The notes: generated by a model from the sequence alone, not told the origin. A stretch of 64,000 nt of DNA from a virus (IMGVR_UViG_3300013121_000023:1-64000); one strand, 5' to 3'. Counted from the first letter of the stretch, positions 1,312-57,177 are shown. Translations and numbers: made by a program.

Positions 1312-1482
1312 ATGGAAGACATACAAGACAAGTTCGGGAGACTGAGTGAATCTATGCGAAATTCTTTTATGTGGAGGTATATAGAAGAAAGCGAATTGAC
1401 ATCTGATTTTTACGACTGGCTTAAACTACAGTATGGAGAAGGTGATGATACACATACAGATGATTATAATTCTGATACTTTA
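1312..1482 (+). CDS. hypothetical protein (TTA-terminated; standard-code ORF to 1506)
   Basis: ATG follows GATAAGAA motif; first in-frame TTA at 1480-1482. Confidence 0.45.
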
Positions 1483-1732
1483 CGTAATTATGTTTTTTGC
1501 TTATGACTCACTATACAAAGAGTTTAGATATGGCTACTTTTTCGGTTCTGTGCCAAAAATAGTAGTCCTCCCACTGTTTGAGATACCCGTATTTATCCTT
1601 ATGGGTGACGTATGGAACGATCTCTTTGCTGTCTACGTAATCACTCCATATACGCAGGTAGCCGGAATACTTACGTTCATGTTCGTGGCTAAGACCGTGA
1701 TATACAAAGTAGTAGGAAGAGAGGATGACTGA
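1445..1732 (+). CDS. small membrane protein
   Basis: About three hydrophobic segments; TGATG overlap with next gene. Confidence 0.55.
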   Translation: MIHIQMIIILILYVIMFFAYDSLYKEFRYGYFFGSVPKIVVLPLFEIPVFILMGDVWNDLFAVYVITPYTQVAGILTFMFVAKTVIYKVVGREDD

Positions 1733-2031
1733 TGACTAGGCGTCAAGAGATTGTGGCCCTGTTGGTGTATCTGGCGATATCTGCAATTTTTGTGGCTTGC
1801 ATCGTATTTTATGCGTTGTCTAGCAAGGAGGCTCTAGCTGCACCTAAAAAAGAGAACAAATGCAAACCAAGCATTCTCTACATAAATCCACAAATAGCAG
1901 CACCTATGGACTACGCTTGCCCAGATGTGGGACAGTGGACCATGACTGTTATACCCAGAATTGAATACGTAGTAATCGTTTGTGAGTGTCCAGGTACAGT
2001 ACACACCGTTAGTTACATGGGTATAGAATTA
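1732..2031 (+). CDS. membrane-anchored/secreted Cys-containing protein (TTA-terminated; standard ORF to 2085)
   Basis: N-terminal hydrophobic helix; GAA TTA TG overlaps the next ATG at 2031. Confidence 0.55.
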
Positions 2032-2240
2032 TGGCAAAACTACACAAGATTGTTTCCACTGATACTGAGTTTCTTCTGGAATTGACACCAGAAGAAGCTG
2101 CTAAAACAATTGGTCTTTTGGCCAAGCAGTTGGTTGATACAGACGGTGGGGAGTGCCCAACATTTTTGTCCCTACCGCCAGCAGACTCTTGCCAAACTTC
2201 TGTTGTTCGGTGCAGAATACATATAGTCATAGGCAAGTAG
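2031..2240 (+). CDS. hypothetical protein
   Basis: ATG coupled to the upstream TTA; 69 aa. Confidence 0.55.
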   Translation: MAKLHKIVSTDTEFLLELTPEEAAKTIGLLAKQLVDTDGGECPTFLSLPPADSCQTSVVRCRIHIVIGK

Positions 2241-2303
2241 GAGTCGAAATGGGTTGGTTTGTACTTTGTTTTCTGACAATACTAGCCGTAAGTGAGTACC
2301 TGT

Positions 2304-2720
2304 ATGACGAGTAATCTAAGAAGGAAACAAAGGGGCGCTAAGCAGAAGAACAAGAAACGAAGCGTAGTAGTTTCTGTTCGAGAATTGAAATCACAAGTTC
2401 TTTTGGAGTACAACACTGAATCCGGTATTGAGCCTATAAATAGGCCTAAAACTAGAGCTGATTGTGTGCGCGGTATCAGGCCGTGTCCTTATGTTTCTTG
2501 CAAGTACCATTTGTATTTGGAGGTGCGAAAAACCGGTAGTATAGAGTTTTTCTACCCAGACACAGACCTGGCAGAGATGAGCGCTCCTACCTGTGCTCTG
2601 GATGTGGCTGAAGGTGGAGCTAGGACGCTGCTAAAGATAGGTAAAATGTTCGGTGTATCCAGGGAGAGGATACGCCAAATAGAACAGAGAGTAGTGCGCA
2701 AGTTGAAGATGATAGAGTAG
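2304..2720 (+). CDS. sigma70 region-4-like HTH DNA-binding protein with Cys-rich N-terminal part
   Basis: TLLKIGKMFGVSRERIRQIE region-4 HTH signature; RPKTRADC..RPCPYVSCKYHL motif. Confidence 0.75.
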   Translation: MTSNLRRKQRGAKQKNKKRSVVVSVRELKSQVLLEYNTESGIEPINRPKTRADCVRGIRPCPYVSCKYHLYLEVRKTGSIEFFYPDTDLAEMSAPTCALDVAEGGARTLLKIGKMFGVSRERIRQIEQRVVRKLKMIE

Positions 2721-2726
2721 TGTAGG

Positions 2727-2760
2727 ATAGGGCGCCTATCGGCGCCTTATTCTTTAGCTA
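2727..2760 (+). terminator. hairpin terminator with TTTAGCTA tail
   Basis: ATAGGGCGCC-tatc-GGCGCCTTAT then TCTTTAGCTA. Confidence 0.7.
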
Positions 2761-2770
2761 AGGAGAGGTT

Positions 2771-3526: not shown

Positions 3527-3799
3527 CCTTGTTTCTATACATATCGTTAGCATGGTTCCTTTTATGCAAAATTCTTTTACAACAAAGCCGCTTTCTTTAG
3601 ATGCCTCAGTGAAATAATTTTTCATGTGCTTTTTTGATTCTTTACCTGGCTTACTGTTTAGAGCACAATAGCATTTGTATCCGTTTTTTGTTGGCAGGCC
3701 TGCGTATATGCCATTGAAGTGACCGCCAGCCCTTCTCAGGGCTTCATAAGCTTCCACAAACACGTCAGCTGGAGTCCTACATGTTTGAAGTTGATTCAT
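3524..3799 (-). CDS. hypothetical protein
   Basis: ORF ends at the terminator; start trimmed to MNQLQ. Confidence 0.5.
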   Translation of the reverse strand: MNQLQTCRTPADVFVEAYEALRRAGGHFNGIYAGLPTKNGYKCYCALNSKPGKESKKHMKNYFTEASKESGFVVKEFCIKGTMLTICIETR

Positions 3800-5622
3800 C
3801 TTACGACGCTCGTTTTTCGGCACTGTCTTACCTCACGGACGGAGCAGACGTACATACTGATGACGCTGACGATGATTCTCAGTGGAAAGAATTTACAGTA
3901 GAAACAACCGAAGACTGGTCTGTTCTACCTAAAAAAAGCAAGGTCATGGAGCTAGCTAGCTATGACCTTACTCCATCTGAATTTACAGAGGCGGCGTTTT
4001 ATTTCACCAGTCATGAGGACGGGTCTCCGGTACCTTTTTCTTTTGAAGGTAGGAAGTACCTAAGACGTGTTTATGACACACCGGCAAGAAAGGTGCTTCT
4101 GTGTTGTGCCCGTCAGGTAGAGAAATCTACAACGATAGGTAACAGGGCAATATCGTATGCGTGCCTTATACCGGGTTTCAAAATACTCTACGTATCTCCG
4201 TCTGCGCTACAAACCAAAACATTCTCTAATGATAGACTGAGAGAGCCCATCGATACCAGTGCGATACTGAAGCAGTATACGACTGGCATGTTGGCCAGAA
4301 ACATATTTGAGAAGCAGTTTGTAAATAGGTCTAAAATAACTCTTAGGTACTCATTTCTGACGGCTGACCGTGTTCGTGGTATACCGTCTTACGCTATTTT
4401 CATAGATGAGATACAGGACATCATATACGACAACATACCGGTTATAGAGCAGAGTGCTGCGCACGCTCCAGCTGAGTACAAGATGTTTCTGTACTCAGGT
4501 ACCCCAAAGACCTTGGACAACACTATAGAAGTGTTGCGCGCCAATCACTCCACCAAAGCGGAGTGGATGGTACCCTGTGATGCCTGCGGTTCTTCATCCG
4601 GTGCCGGTAGATATTGGAATGTTCTTGGGGAGAAGAACATACAGAAGAAAGGTCTTTCTTGTGAGCGCTGTGGGAAGCTCATAAGGGCCGACCATCCTGA
4701 CGCTGTTTGGGCAAATTCTGTAGCTCTGGATGGCAACGAAATACAGTTTGAGAGTTATCGAATACCTCAGCTGATGGTGCCTTGGCGCGCTTGGTCTGAA
4801 ATACTGGGCGATTACCACAGATATCCTAGAGCCCAGTTTTACAACGAGGTATTGGGAATATCATATGAAGACGGTATGAAGCCCATTACGGAGTCAGAGC
4901 TTCGTGAGCTTTGCATACCAACGTTGGAAATAGACGAAGAGAACCTGGACAACTTGCGTCGTAGATTGCTGGGCGGCACCCATGTCTACATGGGTATAGA
5001 CTGGGGCTACGGTCAGGGCTCTTTTACGGTTGTATCCCTTGGCGCTTACATGGAAAACAAGTTCACCGTTTTCTACATGAAGCGCTGCAATAACGAGCTT
5101 CTAGACCTAGAGCTACAGATGAAATTCATCATCGACCTGGCTAGAGCTTTCAATGTCAAATACATAGCGGCTGACTGGGGAGCCGGCTTCGGACAAAATG
5201 ATAAACTAACAAGAACTTTTGGGGCTGATAAGGTATTTAAGTTCCAATACGTAAACAAGCTCAGGAAAAAGCTAGCTGTTGATACTAAGATGGCCATCAT
5301 AAAGATGCATCGCTCTGAGATAATGAGCGACATATTTAGTGCCCTAAAGAGAGCGCAGCTAGCCTTCTTCAACTGGAATTCTTTTAGAACCTTTGCCAGT
5401 GACATACTGAATATATATTCCGAGTATTCGGAAACACAGAGGATGCTTCTGTACAACCACAACCCTAAAAGCCCTGATGATGCTTTTCATAGCATCTTGT
5501 ACTGCTTCATGGGGTCAATGATAGACAGACCTAGGCAGGACATCATAGTTCCGCATAAGGAAGACAAGACGAAAGGCCCAGTACACAATAACCTGTACTC
5601 AGGAAACGTGTACCAGGGCTTA
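3781..5622 (+). CDS. terL: terminase large subunit (TTA-terminated; standard ORF to 5730)
   Basis: Walker A ARQVEKST, Walker B IFIDE, SGTP coupling motif, two CxxC pairs (gpA-like), nuclease GIDWG and PDDAFHS; first TTA at 5620 removes a 105-nt overlap with the convergent gene. Confidence 0.9.
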
Positions 5623-5625
5623 TTT

Positions 5626-6318
5626 TTAGCTACTCAGCATAAGATTCTCTATGCGTCCGATGGCATCGGTACCGTTCTTTTTGTACTCTTTTATCGATGC
5701 CATTTCTTTCAAATAGCTATCTGTTGCTGAGTTTAGGTTTCTTTCGCTGACCTTTAGCAACCCATACGCTACGGCTAGGTGTGGATTTCTATTCAAATCC
5801 ACGTCTGCCTCGGTACCTTTGAGTACGCTTATTGTTTTTTTGAATAGTTCGGTTGCCGGCGTACCTAGCTTAGCCCTGTCTACTGCTAGTAGGTACCCTT
5901 CATCTATGGCTATAAAAAACTTTGCCCACTTCATAAGTTCTTGTTCGCTGTATGCAAGTTTTTCCCTTTTACACACCGCCAAACAAGCACCAACTACGTC
6001 TATAATGGCCTGCCTGTTGTCAGACAGTTTCTCATTTGCTCCCAATATGGTTTCGTATACATCGTTCATTTGGCGCTCAAGTTTGGCCAGTCTGAACATA
6101 ATGATACGGAGCATTTCTGTGTTTCTTTTGCTACTCCTTGACTCCAAACCAAGAAGGGTAAACTCTTTAAATGTTTCCAAGTCATACTTGGATACGTACT
6201 TCTTGGCTTGGTCCGCACCTTTAATAGGTATGGACCATCTCCTACACATTGTAATAAAATACTGGGTAGCAACACCCAACTCTTCTGCCGCCTGTGTTAC
6301 GCTGATCCATCCTTGCAT
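5626..6318 (-). CDS. HTH DNA-binding protein (excisionase/MerR-like N-terminus)
   Basis: WISVTQAAEELGV HTH followed by helical/coiled-coil region. Confidence 0.6.
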   Translation of the reverse strand: MQGWISVTQAAEELGVATQYFITMCRRWSIPIKGADQAKKYVSKYDLETFKEFTLLGLESRSSKRNTEMLRIIMFRLAKLERQMNDVYETILGANEKLSDNRQAIIDVVGACLAVCKREKLAYSEQELMKWAKFFIAIDEGYLLAVDRAKLGTPATELFKKTISVLKGTEADVDLNRNPHLAVAYGLLKVSERNLNSATDSYLKEMASIKEYKKNGTDAIGRIENLMLSS

Positions 6319-6368
6319 AGTCTTCAACCCGTATGTTTGCTAGATTCTTGGTAACGAGGTGTGTACCA

Positions 6369-7716: not shown

Positions 7717-8604
7717 ATGCTGAATACAGACGCAATAGACGCCTTTCTGGAAGTTAGTGGTTTGGACAAAACCGCTAGTGCTCTAGATACGGCTAAACAA
7801 CTAGGACACGACGCCGTAGGCGCTATGCGTGCGGGAGTTATCGGCGGTGTTGGAGCCGCCGCCGCCGCAGGTATTCTTTCTGCCGGTGCTACTAGTGCAA
7901 GCGCTCTATACGATGCCGCCACAAAGCATAGAGACTATAAGAATATGATGCAGGCCTTTCCAGATCTGCAACATAGAAATCCAGATGACGTTCAGCGTGC
8001 TTTTACTACTGTCAGGTCTTTTGCTCCGAAGATCACGAAAGACCCTATGACAGCTGGGGCTGCTGTAAATGCTCTACTGCTAGACCCGCAGGCAGCGCAC
8101 GGTTTCGTCGGTGGCTTGACGGACATAGAACGCAAGATACAAAGCCCTGTGCATGAGATGCTTATGCAGGGAAGCTTGCAAGGTATGCGCTCAGGCATGG
8201 AGCATGATTTGTCGTCCAAGAGAGACGAAGCTAGAAGGAAGTTTGATACTTCCATGGCTGACAGGCAGGAAGCCTATCAAGGGTCTCGTGATATAGCTCA
8301 AGCCCTTCTTCAAAGAGAGCGTGACGATCTATCACGAACACACCAAATGGCTATGTCAAATGCACAGCTAGCTCAACAAAAGGAACTATCTCAAGCTCAG
8401 TCGCTTGGTAAGATGTGGTCTGATATAGCACAGATGCAGCATAGAGAGGATATGGCCAGAGACCAGAGGTCAGCGCAAGCAGACCAGCAGGAGGCCAACA
8501 CAAGACTCAGGGCTGCCTTGGATATGCTTTCTAAGCATACTCAAAGTACGGGCGGCAATCTGCACGACCTAGCGCGTAACATACATCGCGGACATGTGCC
8601 GTTA
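7717..8604 (+). CDS. virion (internal/ejection-type) protein (TTA-terminated; standard ORF to 8628)
   Basis: LDKTASA motif, Gly/Ala hydrophobic hairpin, coiled coil; CCG TTA TG overlap with protease ATG. Confidence 0.6.
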
Positions 8605-10286
8605 TGTTCAAATACAGTACATTCATAGGCACAGAAGAACAGCCCGCCTCTATCCCGATATTTGGTCCTAACGAAGACCATTTCGAGAAGACGGCTTCTC
8701 AGCTTGTTATTCTGCCAGCCGTAACTGACTTCATAAAGAAGCTAAAACCTCTTCCTGATTGTCAGTATGTACTGGTTTCGGCTCTGGGCGCGTCTGAGTA
8801 CTACTCGTCTAATGTGAACGGCGATGCCTTCAGTGAAGAGGCTCTTATACACTGCCCAGAAGGTTGGACAGGTAAGCCTCTTATAGACATCGATCTTGCT
8901 CGTGATTGGCCTTATGGGTTTCCTACGTTTTATGGCGGAAACCCATTTGGCTATCATAGGAACAAATCGTCAGACCTATCTTACGGTGGCGTAGAACTAG
9001 CTGTTTGGAACCCTCATATGAAGAGGGTTGAACTTGTGCTCCGCGTAGAGAAAGATAAATGTGTCGCTAGAGGCGGCTCGGGTATATGGGACAAGCTCCT
9101 ACAAGGAGTAGACGTACCTGTATCGATGGGGGCCAAAGTCCCGTGGGATAGGTGCTCCATATGTACAGATATGAAGCTGTACAAAGAAGCGCTCGCTACG
9201 TTTGATAAAAACAAGCACAAGCATCCAGGCATAGCTGTTCTAGAATTTCACAAAAAGCTAAAAGAAAAAAACGGTATCGGTATCAGAGGTATAGCTCCAA
9301 CAAGAAAAGACTACTGCGACCACGCACGCAGTCAGATGAATAAGATTCTGCCCAACGGTAAAAAGGTTTGGGTAGATAATGACTTTCCCAGATTCTTTGA
9401 TATAAGCTTTGTTATCATTCAGGCAGACAAAACAGCTTGGACTCTAGCGCATATAGCAAAAGGTGGAAACAAGACACACTTCTTTATGGGGCTATCAAGC
9501 GATGAGGCTGAAAAGAGAGGTTACGATCAAAGAGCTGATATGTTGCTCGATGTAGACTCTCTTGACAAAACAGCCGCAGATTTGTCTAAACAAGGCGCCA
9601 AGAACAAGTATGCTGAAATCACAAAGCGTGTGCTGCCGAATCCGTTGGCTGCCAAAGCAGCTCCTATCATGGGCAAATCGGAAAAAGATTTGCCGGATTC
9701 AATCATTCGAAAGATAGCCGAGCACAAAGACCTTGATAAAGCTCTGTCTACAGCTGGAAGTGCGGGCATTATATTGAAGCCAAAAGAGTTTCAGCGCGTC
9801 GTACTCATACGTATCGGCGCTGAACCATTGGCTGATGATATGCACAGGTGTTCATGCTGTTTTCATCACAACGATGCTAAGCACAAGATGGACATAGGGC
9901 CGCACAACATAGATGGTCTACTTCGCAGACTACTAGAACCACTCATGGGTATCAGGTCTGCACTAAATCCCCATGTAGATGGTAGGTCTGTAAACATCGT
10001 CCTAAAGGACAGTAGAGAAGTAGAAAAGAAAGCTAGCAGTGTACAAACACCGCTGTTTAACACCATTTCTGCTATGTATAACGGCTATAGAGAAGGTCTA
10101 TTGTCGTTTCTTGACAACGAAGAAAAGCTAGCAGAACATCACGAAACTGAAAAAAGTGCCGGTACCTACTTGTTTTCTCCACTATCTGAGGCGTACTATC
10201 AGTACACCTTCTGGGATGACATACCTGGGAGTGAGCTGGCAGCTATGCCACCGTGGAGAAGGCAACCCCTTCAGGGACCACGATAG
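8604..10286 (+). CDS. prohead (capsid maturation) protease
   Basis: NVNGDAF, GYH, VSMG(+CxxC), FFDISFV..AD motifs typical of phage assemblin-like proteases; lies upstream of scaffold and capsid genes. Confidence 0.7.
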   Translation: MFKYSTFIGTEEQPASIPIFGPNEDHFEKTASQLVILPAVTDFIKKLKPLPDCQYVLVSALGASEYYSSNVNGDAFSEEALIHCPEGWTGKPLIDIDLARDWPYGFPTFYGGNPFGYHRNKSSDLSYGGVELAVWNPHMKRVELVLRVEKDKCVARGGSGIWDKLLQGVDVPVSMGAKVPWDRCSICTDMKLYKEALATFDKNKHKHPGIAVLEFHKKLKEKNGIGIRGIAPTRKDYCDHARSQMNKILPNGKKVWVDNDFPRFFDISFVIIQADKTAWTLAHIAKGGNKTHFFMGLSSDEAEKRGYDQRADMLLDVDSLDKTAADLSKQGAKNKYAEITKRVLPNPLAAKAAPIMGKSEKDLPDSIIRKIAEHKDLDKALSTAGSAGIILKPKEFQRVVLIRIGAEPLADDMHRCSCCFHHNDAKHKMDIGPHNIDGLLRRLLEPLMGIRSALNPHVDGRSVNIVLKDSREVEKKASSVQTPLFNTISAMYNGYREGLLSFLDNEEKLAEHHETEKSAGTYLFSPLSEAYYQYTFWDDIPGSELAAMPPWRRQPLQGPR

Positions 10287-10325: not shown

Positions 10326-11132
10326 ATGACCATGAACCCTTGGTTGGCCGAGTTGCTTGGGGATACAGAGAAGACCGCTCAGCAGGCGCAGGCGCCTGCT
10401 CCCACTCCCGAAGTGGAGAAGAACGCTGAAGCAGAGAAGGTGGCTATGTTCTTGGCCGCCGCTGAAGCCAATAACATCTCCAAAGACCAGATGTTGAAGT
10501 TGGCCCAGGAGAAGCCCGAGTTGGTCAACCAGCTGTGGGAGGCCACTTTTAGCAACGAAGAACAGAAGACTGCCTCGGCTGCTGAAGTAGAGTTGGGGCA
10601 GACCATCGGCAAGATAGCCGCTCAGACATTTGTGGCTGAGTTGCAGAAGACTGCTGCGAAAGACCCTGAGCAGCTAGAGCTGCCGTATTCAAAAGACCCT
10701 TCGGCCTTGAGCAAGGCGAAAGATAAGGCCAAAGAAGTAGGGTCTAAGGCTCTTAAGGCTATTACGGACCATCCCAAGGCTTCGGCTGGAGCTGGCCTTG
10801 CGGGTTTGGCTGCTGGCGGCGCCCTAGCTGCTAAGAGACACTACGATAAGAAGAAGAGCGAGGGCAGTGACGATAAGACAGCGCAGGATGCTGCCGCTGC
10901 TGTTGCTGACCTAAATGAAATCGCTGGCGGTGTTGCCGTAAAGATGGCCGCTGACGCCGGCTTTAACGTTGACGAGGCTATTCTCCGTATTAGCGGTGTT
11001 CTAGCCCTAGGTGGTGCAGCAGTAGACAGCTACGCAAAGACCGCATCTGCCACAGATGGCGACTCGGCTGTTTACATCCGTTCGCTAGAGCTTCTTGAGT
11101 CGGCAGGATATCCTGTTAAGTGGAACGGGTTA
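10326..11132 (+). CDS. scaffold/core-like head protein (TTA-terminated; standard ORF to 11141)
   Basis: About 10 K-x-A motifs, Ala-rich; GAAAGGA RBS. Confidence 0.6.
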
Positions 11133-11159: not shown

Positions 11160-12341
11160 ATGTCAAATATCCAGGGTTCTCAATTTTCGAGATATCCAGA
11201 TACTTCTGTAGTTCCTGCTCCTCAGATACCGACCACCCCTGCTACCGGTTTGACTGGTAAGGGGTCTAAATCGATGGGTCTTGCCCCCAGACAAGCAAAT
11301 GCACCTGTAAATACTGGTTTTGCTACCACTGGTACAACACCAGATCCTACAAATGCATTCAAATCTGTTACGGCAGCCATTGATACGGTTTCACCTTTTG
11401 CCAAGACAGGCTCTACGATGAACTTCGCTATGCGACCGTCACTGAACGATATTCTAACTCATGCACTAGCTGGGGCATCGGCGGGCATCAAGCTAGCTGC
11501 TGAGGAAGACAGAAAAGACAAAGACCGCCGAGGCGAGAAGGACAAGGACGATAAAGAGAAGGATGCCTGTGGTCCTGGTATGAAAACGGCTTCTGCCGAA
11601 GATACCCATCTCTTGATCGATGCTGGTCGTTCTTGTGCAGATGGTCTTAGAAAGATCGCTGCTTCGCTAGAAGTTGGTGAAGTCGGTACGGCTAAGAATG
11701 AAGCTGGTACTGTTACTACGCCATCAGCCAGCGGTCAGCAGCCGCAGCCTACTGGGCATAGTGCAGCACATGGTAAAGAGCCCATGTCGCGTACTATGGA
11801 TGCTGGTAAGCAGATGCAGAATACGGAAACAGACAGACCTGGTGGTAATGAGCCCGGTCAGCGCATTTCTGATACGCTGGCTAAGAAGGCGTCTGCTGCT
11901 CCTATTTCGATGATTGCAAAGATGGCCTCCATGAAGGCTCCTATAAGCACCATCTTGAAGATGGCGTCTGGTACAGAGCCTGTTGGTCCCGGTACTGGTG
12001 AACCTGTGAGAGACGGTTCTCAGCCTGCTGGGCCCCATCCTGGCGGAAAGCCTGCTGGAGCTACACATGTTGTAGCTAGCAATCAAGCGGCTGTTGACTA
12101 CACAAAGCGGGATGCGAAAGCACCTGAAAAGAGAGAAGCCGCAAAGACTGTAGATGAGGCTATGCAGAGCGCTTCTACAGACCCAGTTCTAAACCAGGCT
12201 TTTGCCCATACAGGTGAAGCTGGGGCTAAGATAGCGGCTGCTATCATGTCCGGTAAGTCTGTAGACACTGCTATCATGCAGGCAGCGGGCCGAGCTGTTC
12301 TTACCAAGATTGCTGCGGCTCAATCGGGTAGGAGGGCGTTA
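11160..12341 (+). CDS. low-complexity head core/scaffold protein (TTA-terminated; standard ORF to 12368)
   Basis: Repeated KLAA/KTAS/KIAA/KMAS; GGAGG RBS then GCG TTA TG coupling. Confidence 0.6.
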
Positions 12342-12688
12342 TGTCCGACAGCTCAAAGTACATGCTAAAGGTTGCCACTATTGTGGATGAGCTAACCAAC
12401 AGGTTGGAGTCCACAGTAAGCGAAAGAGATAAGCTGGCTGCTGAGTTGGCTTCCTATAAACATAGGGAGCGTATAGAGAAGCTAGCCACAGCTCTGATTG
12501 ATAGAGACATCACATCAGATGCGCGTGAGCAAGTTATTGCGCGGCTTAGCAACGAATCACCTGATAAGCTTGCTAGCATCGAGGCAGGCATAGACTACAT
12601 AAGTCCAAAAATGAATCTGGGTGAGTTGGGCAATCCAGATGCGGGTGCTCTACACCCATTCGAGGCCCAACTACTCGGTCGTCGTTTA
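12341..12688 (+). CDS. coiled-coil scaffolding-like protein (TTA then TAG)
   Basis: Heptad pattern; position just before capsid genes. Confidence 0.6.
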
Positions 12689-12708: not shown

Positions 12709-13236
12709 ATGGCTCAAGTGACTTTCGATCTAGTAACTGACCACTTCCGTCAGTTCATGAAGCACATCCCTCTGGTAGACGGTACTCTGGTAGACCCTAC
12801 CAACGCCGCGTATCTAGAGGGCGGTGAGTGGGTTACACTGGCTAGCTCGGGCAAGGCCGAGAGAGCTTCTAACGTTGCCTCGACTGGCAACGCGGCTACT
12901 CTCAGAAGCTGGCCAGTCTTCCTAGAGCGTGGTCGTACAGACCTCCAGGCGAAGTCGTCGCGCGGTGTACCTGTTTTGTGGACAGGTGGCGAGTTTGAGG
13001 CTTGGACGCTTCTGTTCGACGCTGCTGTCACAGTGGGCAGCGGTGCTCCTATTACGACCATCTTGCAGCCTCTAAAGGTTGCCACAGTTGACCTGACTTC
13101 GACCCTTGGTCGTAAGTACACTGGTCTAGTTGGTCATGGTGGCGCGGCAGACTCGGCACCCATTGTTGGGTACGTGACAATGCTGCCCGCTAACAACAGC
13201 GGTAAACTTCAGTTCATTACTGGTGGCCGACGCTTA
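12709..13236 (+). CDS. capsid decoration/cement-like protein (TTA then TAG)
   Basis: AGGAGA RBS; beta/Gly-rich; directly upstream of the major capsid gene. Confidence 0.55.
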
Positions 13237-13272: not shown

Positions 13273-14415
13273 ATGGCAAACGGGCTGACCCCTCAAGAGA
13301 TACAGCTAATGAACGATAGCTTTTCCGTTCAGGTTGAGACACCTGAAGGTAGAGCTAAATTCGCTGCCAGCGGTGGCGATTGGGTAAGAGACCGTCTTCG
13401 TGAAGACTCGTTTCTAGAGCAGATTGTGCCGATGGTCCCTGTGGTCAAGGCCGATTGTCAGCAGGCTCTAGATCACGACACGCTGGTGAAGATCATAGAG
13501 GTGGAGCCGAAGTCGAGAGCCCTGACTCTAGACTTCCGTTCGGGCCCCACAGTCAATTTCATCAGAGGCAAGCGTGTTGCTGCGGCCTTCTTCACTATCT
13601 CGTCCGAGATGATTCAGAAGACAGAGCAGGAGCTAGCTGCTTACAATATGCCCGTTACCAAGATCATCGAAGAGAACTCGGTGAAGGATATGGGCGAGAT
13701 TCAGGACCGTGAGTTCCTGATCAACTGTGAGGCAGCTGTGCAGGGTCTCCAGAAGGAGGCCAACGGCGGCACGATTACCACCCTAAACGCAACAGCTCTA
13801 CAGGGTGGTTCGCCTCCCGTTGAGTTCTCGGTTGTAAAGGGTGAGCTAGCCCGTGTTGCGTCTGTTGATAACGGGACCGTTTTGCCGATTCAGAGGCCTG
13901 ACTTCGTTAGGCTGATGAACCTGATCGACGGTAATCGTTTGCAGTCGAACATGGTGTTGATCACCACAGTTGACGCGAACAACACTCTTACATGGACCTT
14001 GGCCGACAACGGTGACCGTCTACAGTCGGAAACGGCTGTTGATGGGTATAAGTACAACACCTTCCTCGGCAAGCGCTTCATTAAGACCATCAAGACGGAT
14101 ATTCTCCGTCCTGGTAACGTGTATGCCTTTACGGATTCGTCCTTCTTTGCGAAGGCGTATCTGTTCAACAACACGAAGTTCTATGTTGATAAGCAGGCCA
14201 ACTGGATCACATTCCAGGCCTGGCGCGATGTGGCTATGAGCATCGTGAACGTTGCAGCTGTGCGCAAGCTAGAGCTGTACTCGGGCGATGCGACAACGAA
14301 CGATGCTGACAGCATCTTCTCGTCGATTTCGCCCAAGGAAGAGAAAGATCTGGGCGCGGTCAATAACCGCGTGGCTGAGGGTCTGCGTTATCCTCAGATC
14401 AACCCAGCCTACTTA
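13273..14415 (+). CDS. major capsid protein (TTA-terminated; standard ORF to 14427)
   Basis: About 380 aa, AGGAGA RBS, biased codon use, canonical position after protease/scaffold, followed by a terminator. Confidence 0.8.
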
Positions 14416-17790: not shown

Positions 17791-18252
17791 ATGCCGAAGG
17801 TAAACAAGCCCGAGGTGATTTATCCTTCACATGTGTATGCGATTACACCTAGTGGCTATCTTCTTATGAAGAAGGTAGCTGGTAGTACGAAGGTTCTTAC
17901 TACAGCGATGCTGAAGAACGCTTCTGGTAAAAGTAAAAGCATGAAAGTAAACGCAGCTATATCAGCTGTGTCAGAAGTATTGGGGGATGCACCTGATGAG
18001 CTTGTCTACGTAGGCAAAGAGACTGTATGTGTTGGCGAAATTCAGAAAGTGATAACTGGGTTTGTGCTGGGTCTGACGAAGCCGAATCCAGTTATTAACT
18101 GTGAGTGGGTTCCAATGCACTATCTGTACATGCCAGATAGTCCGTTTAAGGTCACCCCTACGTTCAGACAGACGTGGAGCACATTTGGGCCCAGCGTGAT
18201 GGAGCTTGCCCAAATTATACGTCTTAGAAGTGGGACGCACATTTTGGTTTGA
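17791..18252 (+). CDS. hypothetical protein (possibly a degenerate Nudix-like fold)
   Basis: GAGGT RBS; no intact Nudix box. Confidence 0.5.
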   Translation: MPKVNKPEVIYPSHVYAITPSGYLLMKKVAGSTKVLTTAMLKNASGKSKSMKVNAAISAVSEVLGDAPDELVYVGKETVCVGEIQKVITGFVLGLTKPNPVINCEWVPMHYLYMPDSPFKVTPTFRQTWSTFGPSVMELAQIIRLRSGTHILV

Positions 18253-18260
18253 GGTGCAAC

Positions 18261-19640
18261 ATGCTCGACTCATATATGTCTGTTCTTCTAGCTAACGCTA
18301 AGAGGGAACAAGAGCTTGATAAGCTGGCCGCAGAATTGTCCAAGTATCCGATGGACGTTCTGCAAAAGGTTGCAGATAGCAAGCTAGCCCTTTTTTGCGG
18401 TGACACGGATTGGCTAGAAAAGTACAAGAACACGCCTCTCTTGCAGAAAGCCATCGATTTGGCCAAAGCTGAAATCGAACAGGATATGCAAGATGAGAAC
18501 GCCTTTCAGGAAAGTAATCTACGTAGTAATGGCAGGCGACAGATAGAGCTTCAGAAAAGGATGCTGGATATTGAGCTAGCCTCCATGAATCTTCAGCATG
18601 ATGAAGTCCCTGTGTCGCCTGAACAGGTAGCTGGCGACATAAAGCAAGCTAGCGCCACAGCTGCTATCAGAACTGCGCTTCAAAATCCATGGGTTAGGCA
18701 AGCGGCTACAGGGGCACTAACAGGTGGTGTTGGTGCTCTAGCTACTGGTGGCTCCGTACTAGAAGGGGCTGGTATGGGAGCTGTAGGAGGATTGGTGTCT
18801 GGTGGCATAGACCATTTTACAGGTGGCAGCACACCAGCCGTTAAACCGACCCCACAGCCAGCCGGCGCAGCTAAGCCAGCAACAGGTGTTATGCCGGCAG
18901 CTAAACCTGCTACTGGCGCCATGCCTGCCGCGAGACCCCCGACTGGGGCCACGCCAGCTATAAAGAGTCCTACCGGTATGGTTCCAAGTGTAAAGGGCCC
19001 CACTTTGAATTCCGCAGGTATAGGGCCTACACCGCCACCTTCTGCGCCAGCTGTACCAAAAGTAGCTTCGATAGCTGAAAGAATGAAGGTAGCTCTACAT
19101 AAAATGGCAAATCAGCCCGTAGTAGCTGTACCGCCTAGCCAGATAGAGAGCTTTATAAGAAATAACGCAGGTGCTTTGGGAGTCGGTGCTTTGGGCGCTG
19201 GCGCTGGCCTTTACAGTTCTTTGCGTAGGAAAGAAAACCCAGAGGATGAAGACAGTCTTCTGTCTGGTGCTGCAAAGACATTGGGAGGCGGTGCTATCGG
19301 TGCGGCTCTTGGCTACGGTGGACACAAGTATTACAGCGGTATCAAAGAGCTTATGGACAAAGGTATGTCCCCTGGTGAAGCTTTTGATACACATAACAAG
19401 AACCTCTGGGAAGCTGGGTTGAGCAAGGTTACGGACCACGCTTTTGGTCTGAACAACCCCCTACCAAGTCAAGAGCACACATCAGTTGTTAAGCAGCAGG
19501 CACCGCTGCCGTCACAACCTCATCTACCATTTTCTGCTCCGCAGCCATCTGTACATAAGATGCCTGCACAACACGCAGTAGCACCTACTGTTAAGTCTAA
19601 CGTTCTTCAATCTGGTACGAGACATCTGAATATTTGGTTA
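18261..19640 (+). CDS. virion protein with Gly-zippers and Pro-rich repeats (TTA-terminated; fused to next gene in ORF track)
   Basis: K-x-A motifs, ~10-aa AAKPATG(V/A)MP repeats; first TTA at 19638, then ATG at 19653. Confidence 0.65.
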
Positions 19641-19652
19641 GGCGGAACCAAC

Positions 19653-41293: not shown

Positions 41294-41615
41294 ACAACTG
41301 AGACCGCACAATGACTCCGTTATTGTGCGGTTTATGCCGTTGGTTATGAAACGCGGGGCTATTCACCTTGTTAAAGGTGAAGACGTGTACAAAGCGACTG
41401 TACTAGCCGTTGGTCCAGGCAAGTACTACGGCGACAAAAGAGTGAAACCAGATGTGAAACCAGGTGACATAGTTGTCTTTCACAAAGACAACATGGCACA
41501 TAAATCTGGTAAGGCTCTTGTAAACGCTCTCTCTGACTTTGGTGAGGACATAATCCTTATCAAGGCCGGGGATATACTGTGCGTAGTAGACCCAGATACG
41601 GAGATAACTCTGTGA
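41280..41615 (+). CDS. groES: GroES-like co-chaperonin
   Basis: LRPHNDSVIV, VLAVGPG, VKPGDIV, DILCVV Cpn10 signature. Confidence 0.85.
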   Translation: MFRSEQLRPHNDSVIVRFMPLVMKRGAIHLVKGEDVYKATVLAVGPGKYYGDKRVKPDVKPGDIVVFHKDNMAHKSGKALVNALSDFGEDIILIKAGDILCVVDPDTEITL

Positions 41616-41866
41616 GGCTTGTAGAAAGAACGCAAGAGGGTCGTATAGAACTATGCTGGATGTGGCTACCTCATTGGTTGGCTACAAACAGAAACGCTCT
41701 GACTCAACTAGAGCAGGCTGTAGCAGCCAAGCTAGTTGGTCTAGAAATGACCGACGCTACTCTAGATCTAGCGCATGATCTAGTTGCTGACTCTCTACAA
41801 CGTCAGTACCCAGATGTAAAAGGTCTTCGTAACTATCTGGATTCTCTAAAATTTGTGAGCCTATTA
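41612..41866 (+). CDS. hypothetical protein (TTA-terminated; standard ORF to 41890)
   Basis: GTGA start overlap; CTA TTA TG coupling to next gene. Confidence 0.6.
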
Positions 41867-42898: not shown

Positions 42899-43375
42899 AT
42901 GAGTCTTATACGTCAGCTGACCACAATGGGTGGGTTTGAACTAATACGCGATGACTCATCCGGCCCCGTAGCTAAGTATGTTGGTAGAGTTCTGAATAAA
43001 AAAGGAACTCCCGAATACGACAAATGGCTTTTCTGCGTTCACGCTGTGCTAAATACCTGCAACAACGTAGGTAGGGCAAACAACGTGGATATCTCTCAGC
43101 AAATATACCTAGATGACGATAACAAGCTCAGGTATGTTTGGCGGATAGTTTTGAAGGCCGACAGCGAAGAAGATCTGAGAGCGGTTCTAAATAGTTTGTC
43201 TGAGGCGGTAAAGAACATACCTATACCTAAGTCCGCTATAGAGACTACTACTGTGGCTACCGGTAGAAGAACTATGCAGGGTCAAAACGATCGCGGTAAA
43301 GGTGTCGCACTTACTGGTCAGGCTAGAGTCGGTCCCTTGCTTCAGGGACAGCTAGCAGCTTCTAGGAGAATGTTA
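42899..43375 (+). CDS. hypothetical protein (TTA then TGA)
   Basis: ATG TTA TGA with next ATG at 43375 and AGGAGA RBS. Confidence 0.6.
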
Positions 43376-48515: not shown

Positions 48516-48910
48516 GGGCTTATCCAAGTCATTGGAAACCTATCTTGCCTAGCCCTAGCGTAATCAACTATATATTGCGGTGCTCCTATAGATTTAAGGC
48601 AGTCAGCATCCATATAGTACCTTTTTTTAGCATCGGTATAGTACGTACCGGGTATTTCCGTTTTTTTCACGTAATTGTCGACCAAGGCATATCTAGTGCG
48701 TTTCACTATAGCTATCAGCGCCCTAAAGGTTTCATCCTCTCCCAGAAACCAGGCGATATGCAGCATCGGCATATTCATAATCCTTTTTAGTAGTTCTACT
48801 ATTTCTTCGCAGCTTAGCTTTGTGCTGATTGTTCTAGCGGTCAGTAGAAACCATTTTGGATTTTCTTCCTCAGCTAGTTTGTCTATTGCTTCCGCAAAAT
48901 AACTTGTCAT
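48512..48910 (-). CDS. NPxLP-family protein (divergent)
   Basis: NMPMLHIAW. Confidence 0.6.
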   Translation of the reverse strand: MTSYFAEAIDKLAEEENPKWFLLTARTISTKLSCEEIVELLKRIMNMPMLHIAWFLGEDETFRALIAIVKRTRYALVDNYVKKTEIPGTYYTDAKKRYYMDADCLKSIGAPQYIVDYARARQDRFPMTWISP

Positions 48911-49403
48911 AGCTGGCACTGTATGCGTCTAGCACTTCTTTGTATAGATTGATCGAGGCTTTAAACACCTTTTTGTTTACCTCTTCAAATGTTTTCTTCA
49001 TGTACATAGGTATGTTGATATGCGGACTACTTCTGTTTGTATCGCACAGTCGTATCCTTTGACTACTGGTATGTTCATACGTAAGTACTTTGACTTCAAT
49101 GAGTATGTACAATGCAGATGAGATCATATCCATGACCATACTGTGATGTTTTTGCATGCATATTCGTTCATAACCGATTGTTACGTAGGTACACTCCTCT
49201 GTGTATTCCATCCATATGACTGGTAGTACTGGGTTGTGGAGTAGCGCCACTACGTAGTCCCGGGAATATGTGTAATCCTGGGAATCATGAACTGTGTACG
49301 AGCGGCCACCGCCCTTCCCAAGTATCGATTCTATGGCATCGATAAGCTCCAGTGCTGTGTGGGCGTTATGTAGTGCATTTATATTGTCTTTTCTGTGCGT
49401 CAT
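48900..49403 (-). CDS. NPxLP-family protein (TTA-terminated; standard ORF to 48870)
   Basis: HNPVLPVIW; TTA at 48902-48900. Confidence 0.6.
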
Positions 49404-51320: not shown

Positions 51321-51567
51321 AGTTTTCAATCCAGTTCCACAAACATACTTCTGCGTTTACAGGTTTTGTTTTATGCTTACCGCAGTGAATACACTCATAT
51401 ATAAATAGATAATAGTGTTGTTCTTTTTTGCATATCGAACATGGTCTTATCTGTATTTCTACACGCTCCTTGAAATGAAATACGTGCCTTGAGAAGAAGC
51501 ATTTGATCTTGTCCATGTAGGTGCTTTTGTGCTTTTCTTCTTCATGATGCTCTCTATATGGGTTCAT
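51304..51567 (-). CDS. small Zn-ribbon protein (MNPYR paralogue)
   Basis: CSIC..CIHCG. Confidence 0.6.
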   Translation of the reverse strand: MNPYREHHEEEKHKSTYMDKIKCFFSRHVFHFKERVEIQIRPCSICKKEQHYYLFIYECIHCGKHKTKPVNAEVCLWNWIENYEQDG

Positions 51568-51845
51568 AAGTCCAGCATACCTCCTGGCATGTGCTCCCAG
51601 CATTTGTCATGCGAATATGGTTGAAGTGTTACTACGATTCCGCATCTGCTACATATTCGCGCAGTACGTGTATGCGTCTGTTGTGCTCCGCATACGTAAC
51701 AGCTAGCATCCTTGAACACTATCAGTTTTATCTTTTCGTGGTTGTGGCCAATCAGATTACATACCAGTTTTCGTATCCAGTCTACGGTAGTAGGTTTTTT
51801 CTCAGTAACATCCTCGTCTTTGTGTGCTTTTCTGTATGGGTTCAT
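51564..51845 (-). CDS. small Zn-ribbon protein (MNPYR paralogue)
   Basis: CNLIGH, CYVC..CSRCG. Confidence 0.6.
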   Translation of the reverse strand: MNPYRKAHKDEDVTEKKPTTVDWIRKLVCNLIGHNHEKIKLIVFKDASCYVCGAQQTHTRTARICSRCGIVVTLQPYSHDKCWEHMPGGMLDL

Positions 51846-52771: not shown

Positions 52772-52966
52772 ATGCAACTGAAGGTAACACTGGTCGATGG
52801 GTGTACGATCCTTGACTCTGCCAAGCCGGCTGACGTAAAGACAGCCGTTGAGCAGAAGCTAAGGGAGTTCGACGAGAAGATGCAGCAAACTGGATGGGAA
52901 CCATTGATTCCATCCGAGCAGGCTCTTCTCCGAACCTTCTTGCTGTGGTCTCTAAACGAGCACTGA
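52772..52966 (+). CDS. small hypothetical protein
   Basis: 64-aa tail of the tracked ORF with protein-like composition. Confidence 0.5.
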   Translation: MQLKVTLVDGCTILDSAKPADVKTAVEQKLREFDEKMQQTGWEPLIPSEQALLRTFLLWSLNEH

Positions 52967-53174
52967 GCAGCTTGTTCTGGGAGTGAGCAAAGGCATGGGC
53001 TTCGTCCTCTTCAGAGAAGAGAAGCACCAGGATGCCGCCGCAGTCAGCAGCGTCTTCCTTTTCTCTGCCTACTCGCACCCTTATTACTTCGTACTCAGCG
53101 ATCCCTAGCGGCTCTATAACAGCGAACATCGCGCACCTCTCTGTTTCTGGCTCCCTCCTGCGGTAGCCGTACAT
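52953..53174 (-). CDS. hypothetical protein (TTA-terminated; standard ORF to 52770)
   Basis: TTA shrinks a ~195-nt antisense overlap to 14 nt. Confidence 0.5.
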
Positions 53175-53742: not shown

Positions 53743-54138
53743 TAAAATGTATTTCTCTGCTTTCTTTGTGAATTTTTCCCAGAACTCGTCAATGTAGTTT
53801 TGTGTGCCCTCTATATCGTACCACATGGAGTAATCATATTCATCCGAATTAATGCCTGCCAGATTGACGAATGCAATGATGTCTGCGAGAATGCTCAACT
53901 CTAGATTGAACTGTTTACCAATGTTGAGTTCCAACAGGTCATTGCACAATGTCAACTCACGCTCATCCTCAATGTAGTGCAGCAGTGCCTCCTTGTAGTT
54001 CCCCGCGCAGGCGGACAACATTATCACATCTCCGAAATCTTCAATGTTCACATCGCTCTCAAAGCCCTCTTTGGGCAGAGTTGCCCAGACTCTCTTGGCC
54101 ACACTGTGCAGTACCCCGTTAACTTCTTCTGCTTTCAT
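53743..54138 (-). CDS. acidic hypothetical protein (TTA-terminated; standard ORF to 53665)
   Basis: Own promoter motif and AAGGAG RBS; TTA 5 nt before the terminator stem. Confidence 0.65.
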
Positions 54139-54678: not shown

Positions 54679-54965
54679 AAAAAAAAACGCTTGCATGACT
54701 GGTAGTGGTTCGCGCGCACCACCACCAGCCTCTCAATCACACTGTACTAGCTGTGACTGATTCGAACGGCCGCAAGCATTTGCCGTCCTACACCTGCTAC
54801 TAACGAACGGACCTACAGGTATTGGTCCGTTCCCGACTTAGCTCGTCAGTCTCGTCGGGTAGACTGACTGTCCTGATGACTTTTACAGTCATCTGCAATC
54901 TCGGTCAGATAAAATTGACCTTTTCAGGCTCGGACATGCCCTAGGATGGAACTTCCTTCCACCAT
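54679..54965 (-). ncRNA. candidate multi-pseudoknot ncRNA 1
   Basis: No long ORF; about 7 stems with three loop-to-downstream pairings; G.U pairs favour minus strand; promoter motif upstream and T9 run downstream. Confidence 0.65.
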
Positions 54966-55008
54966 TATTCTTATAGCACCAATTACTGTATTTTTTCCTT
55001 ACCTCAAG

Positions 55009-55044
55009 TAGCTAAAAAGAAAGCACCGTATGTGGTGCTTTCTT
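55009..55044 (-). terminator. hairpin terminator with TTTAGCTA tail
   Basis: AAGAAAGCACC..GGTGCTTTCTT-TTTAGCTA. Confidence 0.75.
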
Positions 55045-55350
55045 ATTGCCTCAGCATGTCTGCGCACGTACGCATAAACGCTGTCTGTGAGAGGGCAACG
55101 CTCTCATTCATTGCAGCCCATTCTGCAATACTCGCCTCACCCAAGACTTATACGTGCGTCTTGGTTAATTCGTCGCTACCGGCGCTCAGCGACGCGATGT
55201 GGCGGTCAAACACCACCATCCGTGGCATCGAGCCACGGTTTTCCCTTTACAAGGTTGGCTGGTACAACCTTGTACACGTGACCCCTTGCCTGGTTTTGCC
55301 CAGGCTTTGGGAATTAGACGTTTCGGCCGGTCGGGCATTCCGGCCTAGGT
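55045..55350 (-). ncRNA. candidate multi-hairpin kissing-loop ncRNA 2
   Basis: About 10 consecutive hairpins; complementary loops CACGTA/TACGTG; GC-rich island in an AT-rich region. Confidence 0.6.
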
Positions 55351-55848
55351 ATGTTTTCTTTTCATACCTTTTTTCTTATTACGTTTTATGTTCATGAATT
55401 TCTTTCTTGATTTATTCTTTCTTTTTGCCGTTACTGCTTTGGCCAACCATGGTGGCAAAAGTGTGTCGTCTGATTTGGCCATTCTTGCAAGCCACTGTGG
55501 ACTGTCTTTTATCATTGTAAGTACTGAACTTACTTTTTGTATAATTGTAGATGAGAAAAGCACCACCTTTGTTATTGGGTGGTCCAAAAACAACTTCAAT
55601 GCCATCTTTTTCATAGGTCGAGTGACCCTTACTATGTCATATATGTGAGGATGGTATCTGTTGTTTTTAAAATGCGCCCGCGTTATTACGTGACACGATT
55701 TGCCATACGCTATCTCCAATATTATTGAGCTTATTGCTATTCCCGGGTTGCATTCGTTACATGCGTAAGTGTAGTCTATAAATTCTTTCATGTATTTTTC
55801 ATATGCGTGCATCTCGTATCGTTTGTTACATTCCTTCATATGCCACAC
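55345..55848 (-). CDS. NPxLP-family protein (divergent)
   Basis: DHPITKVV; Lys-rich tail. Confidence 0.55.
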   Translation of the reverse strand: MWHMKECNKRYEMHAYEKYMKEFIDYTYACNECNPGIAISSIILEIAYGKSCHVITRAHFKNNRYHPHIYDIVRVTRPMKKMALKLFLDHPITKVVLFSSTIIQKVSSVLTMIKDSPQWLARMAKSDDTLLPPWLAKAVTAKRKNKSRKKFMNIKRNKKKGMKRKHT

Positions 55849-56359
55849 TCCTCAAATATCTGCACATCGTGCTTGTGAACGACTCGCTGACATTAAACTT
55901 TGTGAATGTGGATTCTATTAGGTCTACTTCTTTTTTGGCTACTGTTACACCAGCCATTACTGTTCTTGGAGTTGCGTATTTATCTGCTAGAAATAGGTAT
56001 ACACAGGCCGATATGACTCTACTAAGATGGCCGTCCTGCATCAATACTGTCAATGCTGGGTTTGCCTTCACTGCTCTTGCAATGCGCCTCTGCCTTATCT
56101 TAATGATTTCCTTTTTGTACTCTACGTCGTCTATCGCCCCAGTTGTAAAGCATTTACTATCCATCAGATATTCTATTTGATGGACATGTTCAGGCGATTC
56201 CGCTATGAGAATAAGGGCCAGTAGATAGTCAGAAATGTATTCCATTTCTTCTATATTCACTACTACGTATTCTTGGCTCAATTCAAGTGGCGTATCAGTT
56301 ACATTGTTTGCCCATTTTATTGAATATTTACCCTTTTCATATTTTGATTTTTTCGCCAT
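55826..56359 (-). CDS. NPxLP-family protein
   Basis: ANPALTVLM. Confidence 0.6.
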   Translation of the reverse strand: MAKKSKYEKGKYSIKWANNVTDTPLELSQEYVVVNIEEMEYISDYLLALILIAESPEHVHQIEYLMDSKCFTTGAIDDVEYKKEIIKIRQRRIARAVKANPALTVLMQDGHLSRVISACVYLFLADKYATPRTVMAGVTVAKKEVDLIESTFTKFNVSESFTSTMCRYLRSVAYEGM

Positions 56360-56865
56360 ATATCTCCATCTCCCTACTATCCAATGCAAAACACAAACCC
56401 TGCATCTTTTTCACGTCTTTGTATGCGTATTTCTTTATTTGCCTATATATGTACTTTGGAAACCTACCTGCTACTACCAAGTAAGCTGCATCCATAGCAT
56501 TAAATTCGTAAGTGCTGCCTATTTGAGGCTGCTCGAAGTCCTGGTTCTGATAGTAGTGCAGCGGTCTCGTCCTGTCACAAAAATGAAGTGCAAAGACGGT
56601 TATCAGGTGGGAACTACCTGTTTCCCACAATACTGGAATACATGGGTTTGTTCCCATGTTCTTGAATATCTCTGCGTAGTACCCAGATTCTGATGTTGAT
56701 GCATCTGGGATTCTATATTTTGTCAGTAGTGTGGCCGCTTTGTACAGTTCCTCTCGCGTACTCCATTTGTGCATAAGTGCGTATAGAAACTGTATCTGAG
56801 CCCCCTCTACTTCTATACCGGCACACGCCTCTTCAAACGAGTATGTCAACGAGTATGTCATCATA
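56337..56865 (-). CDS. NPxLP-family protein
   Basis: TNPCIPVLW; ATG directly after GGCATAAGA. Confidence 0.6.
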
Positions 56866-56934
56866 TATCTTATGCCTACTTTTAATTCCGAGTAGCTAAA
56901 GAAAGGAGACCCGCGGGGGTCTCCTTTCAAGCGC

Positions 56935-57177
56935 TAACTTTCCGGTGCCGGTGCCGGTGGCGGCGTTGGGGGCGGCGTTGTGGGCGGCGTGGTGGAGCAC
57001 CACCACATCCGGGGCGATGCCAAGTCTCCTAGCCACCGCTATCACCGCCAGGGCACCCGCTGCCGCGAGAGCACCCTTCGCCAGGGATGCCGCCCCGGCC
57101 GCCGCCCCGGCCTTTGCCAGGGCGCCGTAGTCGATACCACCGTTGTTGTTGTTGGCGTTGCCGTTGTTTTCGGACAT
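56935..57177 (-). CDS. small Ala-rich membrane protein (TTA-terminated; standard ORF to 56896)
   Basis: GC-rich codons; terminator GAAAGGAGACCC..GGGTCTCCTTTC-TTTAGCTA follows the TTA. Confidence 0.65.

Follow-up and report, generated by a model that had tools for sequence, protein, structure and literature searches.

The leucine codon UUA is read as a stop, beside the standard stop codons, in the mitochondria of labyrinthuleans (Thraustochytrium; NCBI table 23) and the plastids of peDinoflagellates, where non-standard stops close over half of the genes; these UUA stops have been tied to a changed release factor, RF2 with a substitution at Ser204 (PMC12574857). In the mitochondria of Marsupiomonadales and Pseudoscourfieldia (Pycnococcus), both UUA and UUG are stops, a change linked to an altered mtRF1a (PMC12574857). 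A full-text search of the literature found UUA-to-stop changes in organelles only, and no sense-to-stop code in a phage or a bacterium; in Streptomyces phages, UUA turned up as a scarce codon or a site of bypassing. To our knowledge, the code changes described in bacteria and phages are either stop-to-sense or amino acid swaps; crAss-like and Lak phages read TAG or TGA as an amino acid. Here, we analyzed a 64,000-nucleotide stretch of viral DNA (IMGVR_UViG_3300013121_000023:1-64000; the window), for which an initial annotation had proposed that TTA (UUA in mRNA) is a fourth stop codon, closing 27 genes. Comparative sequence evidence supports that reading, and the computational checks suggested with the annotation all came out for termination at TTA. 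Because UUA is absent from gene bodies, stands at the stop codons of homologues, and lies between genes that are separate in relatives, we infer that it is likely a termination signal, and not leucine, where the phage is translated. Since a sense-to-stop change of UUA was previously described only for a few mitochondria and plastids, the phage case would be new.

The window comprises the first 64 kb of a virus record from IMG/VR that is 177,132 bp long, carries direct terminal repeats and is rated as 100% complete by CheckV; the G+C (GC) content is 46.6%. The window has genes for the large terminase subunit (TerL; matches to PF05876 and phrog_675), for a tail sheath (match to phrog_279), and for a capsid protein with 27% identity to the annotated major capsid protein (MCP) of Salmonella phage Arash; on this gene content, the source virus is an uncultured contractile-tailed phage. 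Single-protein scans of IMG/VR returned no close relatives. The MCP has more than 1,500 metagenomic homologues, none of them in the 64-98% identity range, and the phage collection has distant isolates only, with MCP identities of 24-27%.

As in labyrinthulean mitochondria and peDinoflagellate plastids, UUA would have passed from leucine to stop beside the standard stops, and it is recognized in the same manner, by a codon that is missing within genes and found at the stop positions of homologues. However, those cases are small genomes with a change in RF2, whereas this is a 177-kb phage that uses bacterial ribosomes and has no release-factor gene of its own. The Marsupiomonadales and Pseudoscourfieldia mitochondria share the sense-to-stop change of a UUR leucine codon, but UUG stays leucine in the phage, with its own tRNA. 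Like the stop-recoded phages, this phage has genes that are mis-called under table 11 and a suppressor-type tRNA(CUA); the direction is opposite to the crAss-like and Lak recoding, with a sense codon becoming a stop. Codons may also become unassigned, such as CGG in Mycoplasma capricolum or AGA and AUA in Micrococcus luteus, where the codon vanishes together with its tRNA. Those codons are merely absent, whereas TTA in the studied phage is placed at gene ends (about 30%). UUA is likewise a special, regulatory codon in the Streptomyces bldA system and its UUA-bypassing phages (PMC10732093), but there it is still leucine, or a take-off site within one gene, whereas here it closes 64 complete genes.

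Distribution of TTA in the phage genome

To the standard stops TAA, TAG and TGA we added TTA in a gene call of our own (the four-stop call), which used an open reading frame (ORF) threshold of 60 amino acids and a crude choice of starts. This call yielded 214 genes genome-wide, 64 of them (about 30%) closed by TTA; in the window, TTA closes 28 of about 89. The initial annotation had found no internal in-frame TTA in the likely genes of the window, and the same was seen across the four-stop genes, which together make up 92.8% of the genome: TTA occurs at 0 of 54,861 gene-body codons, versus approximately 667 expected from position-specific base frequencies. The frame that had been taken for a tape measure extends to genome position 64515 and so ends beyond the window. 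In the two other frames of gene bodies, TTA occurs 1,016 and 455 times. The rarest sense codon, CGG, is used 101 times, and TTG is an ordinary, frequent leucine codon with 1,076 uses. A-ending codons are strongly preferred, with ATA providing 60% of isoleucine codons, AGA being the top arginine codon, and GTA and CTA favored.

Coding density was unchanged by the fourth stop (0.917 with the standard code versus 0.928 with TTA added), whereas making CTA, TTG or ATA a stop, as a control, brought it to 0.36-0.51. Besides leaving the density intact, the re-calling that the annotation had suggested turned gene overlaps of 25-110 nucleotides into TTATG or short-spacer junctions. Stop-to-sense recoding of TAG or TGA, as in other phages, was also considered and was rejected, since gene models did not improve when a stop was read as sense; densities with TAG, TGA and TAA read as sense were 0.925, 0.907 and 0.892, no gain over 0.928. 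Twenty-seven genes end in TAG, and TAG-terminated ends agree with homologue ends, as for gene 8604-10286.

The position of TTA within genes, another point on which the annotation could be examined, was evaluated in standard-code ORFs of at least 200 amino acids over the whole genome. Of the 66 in-frame TTAs, 37 fall in the final tenth of the ORF, with 2 at relative positions between 0.2 and 0.6. The interior TTAs of the standard-code gene set belong to four classes: those in the three fused frames, those in ORFs on the wrong strand, those in frames that a terminal TTA cuts short, and those upstream of real starts. A bldA-type placement, with UUA inside a continuous conserved coding sequence, was found for none of the in-frame TTAs of the genome. 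TTA ends are present throughout the genome and occur among the small, AT-rich genes on the minus strand at 47-61 kb as well; in no module was TTA seen as a sense codon, nor was an early/late split in code use visible.

At 14 of the 49 same-strand junctions that follow a TTA end, stop and start overlap as TTATG, and at others there is either a terminator-like hairpin or an ATG with a ribosome-binding site. The next standard stop follows TTA at a median distance of 9 codons, and ordinary stops are followed by another at the same median (9; Mann-Whitney p=0.58); therefore, the downstream sequence behaves as untranslated. The stop-distance distribution gave no sign of selected back-up stops after TTA, and no context common to TTA ends was found beyond a T at +4.

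Gene ends in homologues and relatives

Next, the ends of TTA-closed genes were compared with those of their homologues (L numbers denote the sequences used). For the TerL gene (3781-5622, plus strand; TTA at 5620-5622), the homologues in L081, L038, L094 and L002 align up to residue 613 of 613, directly followed by a TGA codon; under table 11, the phage frame would extend into the convergent gene 5626-6327 by 36 codons. Sheath homologues in L009, L011, L095 and L099 align to residue 1036 of 1036 and are then closed by TGA (sheath gene 21850-24960, plus strand; TTA at 24958-24960, kept in the independent assemblies L114 and L116 described below; the phrog_279 match spans residues 861-1034 of 1036). 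The homologues of gene 20931-21830 (plus strand; TTA at 21828-21830, kept in L114) in L002 and L093 reach residue 299 of 299, followed by TGA. For gene 12709-13236 (plus strand; TTA at 13234-13236, kept in four assemblies), the homologue in L097 reaches residue 175 of 175 and is followed by TAA, and that in L081 reaches the same residue and is followed by TTA. In the case of the MCP gene (13273-14415, plus strand; TTA at 14413-14415, kept in L005-L008, with a terminator-like hairpin downstream), 14 homologues with 59-63% identity terminate at the residue aligned with ...INPAY, and the extra residues LSFK are present solely in the table-11 call of the studied phage. In this comparison, which the annotation had suggested, homologue stops fall at the TTA-aligned codon, with an exact match for TerL, the sheath and genes 20931-21830 and 12709-13236, and within 2-3 residues of it for the MCP.

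Three fused frames of the standard code are split by TTA, and for two of the three the parts are separate genes in relatives. The first is a 761-amino-acid table-11 frame (18249-20534), in which the TTA at 19638-19640 (plus strand) lies between genes 18249-19640 and 19653-20534, which share one frame with no standard stop between them. In relatives L001 and L002 these are two separate adjacent genes, and in L038 the ortholog of gene 18249-19640 ends in TTA followed by cATG. The second is a 1315-amino-acid frame (21850-25797) made of the sheath and a putative tail tube protein, named by position only (24997-25764, plus strand; TTA at 25762-25764), which is in frame with the sheath and preceded, downstream of the sheath TTA, by an AAGAGGA ribosome-binding site and ATG. 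The 430 homologues of the tube family are nearly all stand-alone proteins of 225-265 amino acids, and in L009, L011 and L012 a TTA closes the ortholog at the corresponding position of the alignment. The third frame lies outside the window (L108:405-2825; genome 72404-74827) and has 807 codons with a TTA at approximately codon 541, downstream of which Sigma70 region 3 is found; the sigma factor is probably a separate protein of approximately 266 amino acids and not the end of a polyprotein. A Pfam scan of seven read-through frames showed no domain lying across a TTA, and in the 18249 frame the read-through stretch matches a gene of its own. Homology continuing past TTA, which the annotation had named as a possible refutation, was thus not seen, as no homology or domain crosses any TTA.

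In most relatives (52-60% GC), TTA occurs within aligned regions and usually faces L, I, V or M in the studied proteins, so that its standard meaning is kept there; L099 (44% GC) has 50 TTAs among 2,648 aligned codons (1.9%). A GC-rich set formed by L009/L010, L011, L012, L081 and L038/L039/L094 (62-67% GC) has 0 TTA inside aligned regions and has TTA at homology-anchored gene ends (L038:7831, 9377, 14082 and ~18460; L081:8820, 9176 and 9734; L012:489, 6358, 7435 and 8171). By orthology, this set shares with the studied phage the TTA ends of the tube gene (PGLEAA-TTA-gATG) and of genes 27258-27956, 12709-13236, 10326-11132, 12341-12688 and 18249-19640. Past the TTA, the standard frame stays open for 350-450 codons over downstream genes in other frames, and at some ends the next gene begins 1-14 nucleotides on, in another frame. 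Since standard stops are rare in GC-rich genomes, public gene calls overrun these ends by hundreds of codons, giving 'tube' proteins of 600-700 amino acids. When standard-code relatives served as queries, approximately 450 ends could be anchored; 10 of them had TTA first, 8 of the 10 in the GC-rich set. A classifier of TTA ends in the GC-rich relatives, based on frame shifts in third-position GC content (GC3), was discarded as too noisy, as it scored roughly one in two control codons as 'terminal' and was misled by antisense frames; the TTA ends given here rest on homology-anchored gene ends. In the MCP tree, L081 and L038/39 form a supported clade, and the studied phage sits on a long branch (0.52), apart from this other TTA-stop clade, with unsure placement.

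The terminating agent and competing explanations

As to how UUA might terminate, we tentatively favor the reading that it is a true fourth stop of a large environmental tailed phage lineage (46-67% GC) and of its bacterial hosts, acting through a bacterial release factor of altered specificity. A class-I release factor with widened second-position tolerance, as has been proposed for the UUA stops of labyrinthulean mitochondria and peDinoflagellate plastids, would catalyze release at UUA and would be supplied by the host, which would therefore share the code. The phage would be adapted to this state by having no tRNA-Leu(UAA), a tRNA-Leu(CAA) that reads UUG only, and a tRNA-Leu(UAG). If the small AT-rich genes at 47-61 kb are early, as we assume, UUA termination would work from the start of infection, and TTA ends in such genes would favor a host-supplied agent. 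Among the candidate agents, a host release factor with widened specificity is thus ranked most likely, a phage-supplied factor second, and stalling followed by rescue third.

The phage encodes ten tRNAs (Lys-UUU, Val-UAC, Met-CAU, Thr-UGU, Ile-UAU, Arg-UCU, Leu-CAA, Leu-UAG, Tyr-GUA and one of CUA suppressor type), which mostly read the favored A-ending codons. No tRNA-Leu(UAA) was found in the phage genome, even at low ARAGORN thresholds; the low-threshold matches for transfer-messenger RNA (tmRNA) and tRNA(UAA) were noise. The predicted suppressor-type tRNA(CUA) is well formed, has 73 nucleotides (L103:514-586, minus strand; genome 135413-135485) and scores 67.5 bits to RF00005. It has a UU-CUA-AA loop and, apparently, a G discriminator, and it lies apart from the tRNA cluster. 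The phage strongly favors the codons that its own tRNAs read, both at L102:1407-4254 (genome 123406-126253) and in the whole genome, and this bias suggests a host poor in decoders for ATA, AGA, GTA and CTA, possibly a GC-rich one.

Several observations weigh against the favored reading. No candidate for a release-factor domain (PF00472 or PF03462) was found in the phage. Two metagenome-assembled genomes (MAGs) containing related phage contigs have ordinary RF1 (PVT) and RF2 (SPF) motifs, the binning of phage contigs being weak evidence of host. Moreover, L001, the closest sequence on the MCP tree, uses TTA as a sense codon; therefore, either the trait is polyphyletic or the long-branch placement is wrong. 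The MAGs with related phage contigs belong to very different lineages, and the two examined had too few TTAs to judge.

The change might also be imposed by the phage, with an unrecognized phage factor making UUA terminate, possibly along with loss of the host tRNA-Leu(UAA). In this version, too, UUA is a stop, and the only difference is the source of the agent; in its host shut-off form, UUA-containing host mRNAs would be cut short and phage genes would be immune. We consider it unlikely, although it would account for a trait that tracks the phage lineage over 46-67% GC, which may mean different hosts, and for the phage's own UUG-only tRNA-Leu(CAA), which would be needed if the host UUR reader were removed. 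Most phage genes also have no known function. Nevertheless, the Pfam scan of 37 phage proteins returned no release-factor domain, nuclease or other candidate agent, and the GGQ motif scan of the phage gave seven chance-like matches, none of them release-factor-like. TTA ends also occur in the small genes assumed to be early, with the standard code in no module, and UUA would be too scarce in GC-rich hosts for shut-off to pay. The 20 genes around the tRNA cluster encode only AAA ATPases, deaminase-like proteins, an SNF2-InPase helicase and a RecA-like protein. An SNF2-type helicase fused to an InPase domain (L113:5379-7952), a dCTP-deaminase-like gene (L113:9524-10186) and a weak dCMP-deaminase-like match (L112:10989-12047) hint at nucleotide-pool remodeling or DNA base modification.

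According to a further explanation, UUA would be unassigned in a host with no decoder for it, so that ribosomes stall and are rescued, or drop off with peptidyl-tRNA hydrolysis, possibly by a Pth2-domain protein of the phage. In its favor, the phage has no tRNA(UAA), and its Pth2-domain gene (L004:1507-1806; genome 113083-113382; 99 amino acids) has its own ribosome-binding site and GTG start and is itself closed by TTA. However, the most abundant virion proteins (MCP, sheath and tube) end in TTA. Moreover, internal stalling is a slow process, products rescued by tmRNA would be tagged for degradation, at the unassigned codons of Micrococcus and Mycoplasma the ribosome retains the peptidyl-tRNA, and many large phages have Pth genes, all of which make this explanation improbable. 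The Pth2 gene lies in frame, three codons past a TAG-terminated 188-amino-acid ORF. Amber-gated expression was considered for it and is not needed, as GAGGG and the in-frame GTG after the TAG permit independent initiation; the adjoining gene has no Pfam or ESM Atlas match.

Under the standard code, TTA would be a very rare leucine codon tolerated near C termini, and the gene ends described here would be short extensions or fusions. Many TTAs do have a standard stop within 0-12 codons, but this distance is the same as after ordinary stops, and homologue stops coincide exactly with TTA. The standard code would further require the sheath and tube, genes 18249-19640 and 19653-20534, and the sigma-factor gene to be fusions, the first two of which are separate in relatives, and it would require 350-450 wrong-frame codons through downstream genes in the GC-rich relatives. 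We therefore regard it as very improbable. Programmed recoding, in which a frameshift or bypass at a hungry UUA joins adjacent frames, has a precedent in a Streptomyces phage, where UUA-triggered bypassing is experimentally supported and has been proposed for terminase genes (PMC10732093). At TTATG junctions, the next frame is indeed 2 nucleotides away. Nonetheless, the TTAs do not lie within one conserved protein but divide complete genes, which relatives carry separately, many are followed by terminator-like hairpins or by spacers of 20-200 nucleotides, and the shared context is limited to the T at +4, so that this explanation, too, has very little to recommend it.

Contigs from 6 other samples (one JGI sample and five SRA runs), with 98-100% identity to the phage, served as independent assemblies (L005-L008 and L114-L116) and covered 14 of the 27 sites. 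TTA is kept at all 14, and neither TAA nor TGA was read in its place, an outcome that the annotation had named as a refutation. None of approximately 150 single-nucleotide polymorphisms creates an in-frame TTA, and synonymous changes among other leucine codons do occur. Thus, an artefact, be it a sequencing or assembly error, a misread base modification or RNA editing of UUA to UAA, is the least probable explanation of all, with no observation in its favor, and is largely refuted at the DNA level, given these assemblies, the orthologous TTA ends in distant relatives, and the fact that errors would need to strike in-frame terminal codons only.

Individual gene ends in the window

All 27 TTA codons listed by the initial annotation were found at their given coordinates, the 20 plus-strand sites reading TTA from the listed base and the 7 minus-strand sites reading TAA on the plus strand up to it. 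Twenty-five of the 27 match gene ends in the four-stop call, and those at 8602 and 1480 are absent from it. The TTA at 1480-1482 (plus strand), the weakest of the sites, closes a 56-amino-acid ORF (1312-1482) that falls under the 60-amino-acid threshold; an ATG in the frame of the next gene is found at 1490, 8 nucleotides downstream. The TTA at 8602-8604 (plus strand; kept in L007) was missed because the crude start overlapped the upstream gene; it ends the gene upstream of 8604-10286, with which it forms a TTATG overlap. The 560-amino-acid product of gene 8604-10286, possibly a portal protein, has counterparts of 929-978 amino acids in L001:3729-6665 and L002:4113-6902, larger due to an insertion with Hint and LAGLIDADG (intein) matches. 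The terminase genes of relatives carry the same kind of insert, and the studied phage has neither.

Other plus-strand ends lie in the first half of the window. Gene 1732-2031 ends in TTA at 2029-2031, overlapping gene 2031-2240 as TTATG. Gene 10326-11132 ends at 11130-11132 (kept in L007 and L008); its homologue alignments end at residue 266 of 268, and the L038/L094 ortholog is TTA-terminated too. Gene 11160-12341 (TTA at 12339-12341; kept in L007 and L008) overlaps gene 12341-12688 as TTATG and agrees with its homologue ends (385+8=393); L081 has TTATG where position suggests the same junction. The TTA of gene 12341-12688 (12686-12688; kept in L005, L007 and L008) is immediately followed by TAG, and the orthologs in L038 and L081 are TTA-terminated. 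For gene 26148-27224 (TTA at 27222-27224; kept in L114 and L115), a junction in L012 that, judged by position, may be the same one has a TTA end with a ribosome-binding site and ATG after it. Gene 27258-27956 (TTA at 27954-27956; kept in L114) is followed by a terminator-like hairpin, and its orthologs end in TTA in L012 and L009 and in TGA in L011. Farther along the plus strand, gene 34449-35171 (TTA at 35169-35171) also has a terminator-like hairpin after it, and TTATG overlaps close genes 38728-39150 (39148-39150), 39150-39824 (39822-39824), 41579-41866 (41864-41866) and 42899-43375 (43373-43375).

On the minus strand, TTA closes genes 28014-28637 (28014-28016), 30026-30667 (30026-30028) and 32302-33495 (32302-32304), all three kept in L114; orthologs of the second in L012 and L009 have TAA or TGA approximately 28 codons beyond the end of the alignment. 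It also closes genes 48900-49403 (48900-48902), 52953-53174 (52953-52955), 53743-54138 (53743-53745) and 56935-57222 (56935-56937). An additional minus-strand end, which the annotation did not list, was found in the four-stop gene call only (51567-51569), closing the 92-amino-acid gene 51567-51845, for which homology support is lacking. Beside the tail module, a minus-strand gene at 30660-31475 (271 amino acids) encodes a papain-like cysteine protease (PF00112, Peptidase_C1), as called from a precomputed match on the near-identical L114 gene; it occupies the same place in relatives L009 and L012.

Implications of the proposed UUA stop

About 30% of the proteins of the studied phage would have wrong ends in public databases, as exemplified by the 1315-amino-acid sheath-tube 'fusion', and standard gene callers cannot flag such a change. 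Codetta-style screens use profile alignments to assign an amino acid to every codon (PMC9825746), and they would probably miss a TTA stop too, because the codon disappears from conserved columns. A release-factor specificity that evolved naturally would also be of interest for recoded organisms.

For the phages and their hosts, a TTA stop would act as a barrier to gene flow, as TTA-containing genes would be truncated in the TTA-stop system and TTA-ended genes would be read through elsewhere. Its origin would bear on the evolution of the code, for example by loss of the codon under GC pressure followed by its capture by a release factor. If true, a sense-to-stop code would for the first time be known from the translation system of a free-living cell and its viruses, and what was supposed to be an oddity of organelles would extend to bacteria and the viruses that infect them.

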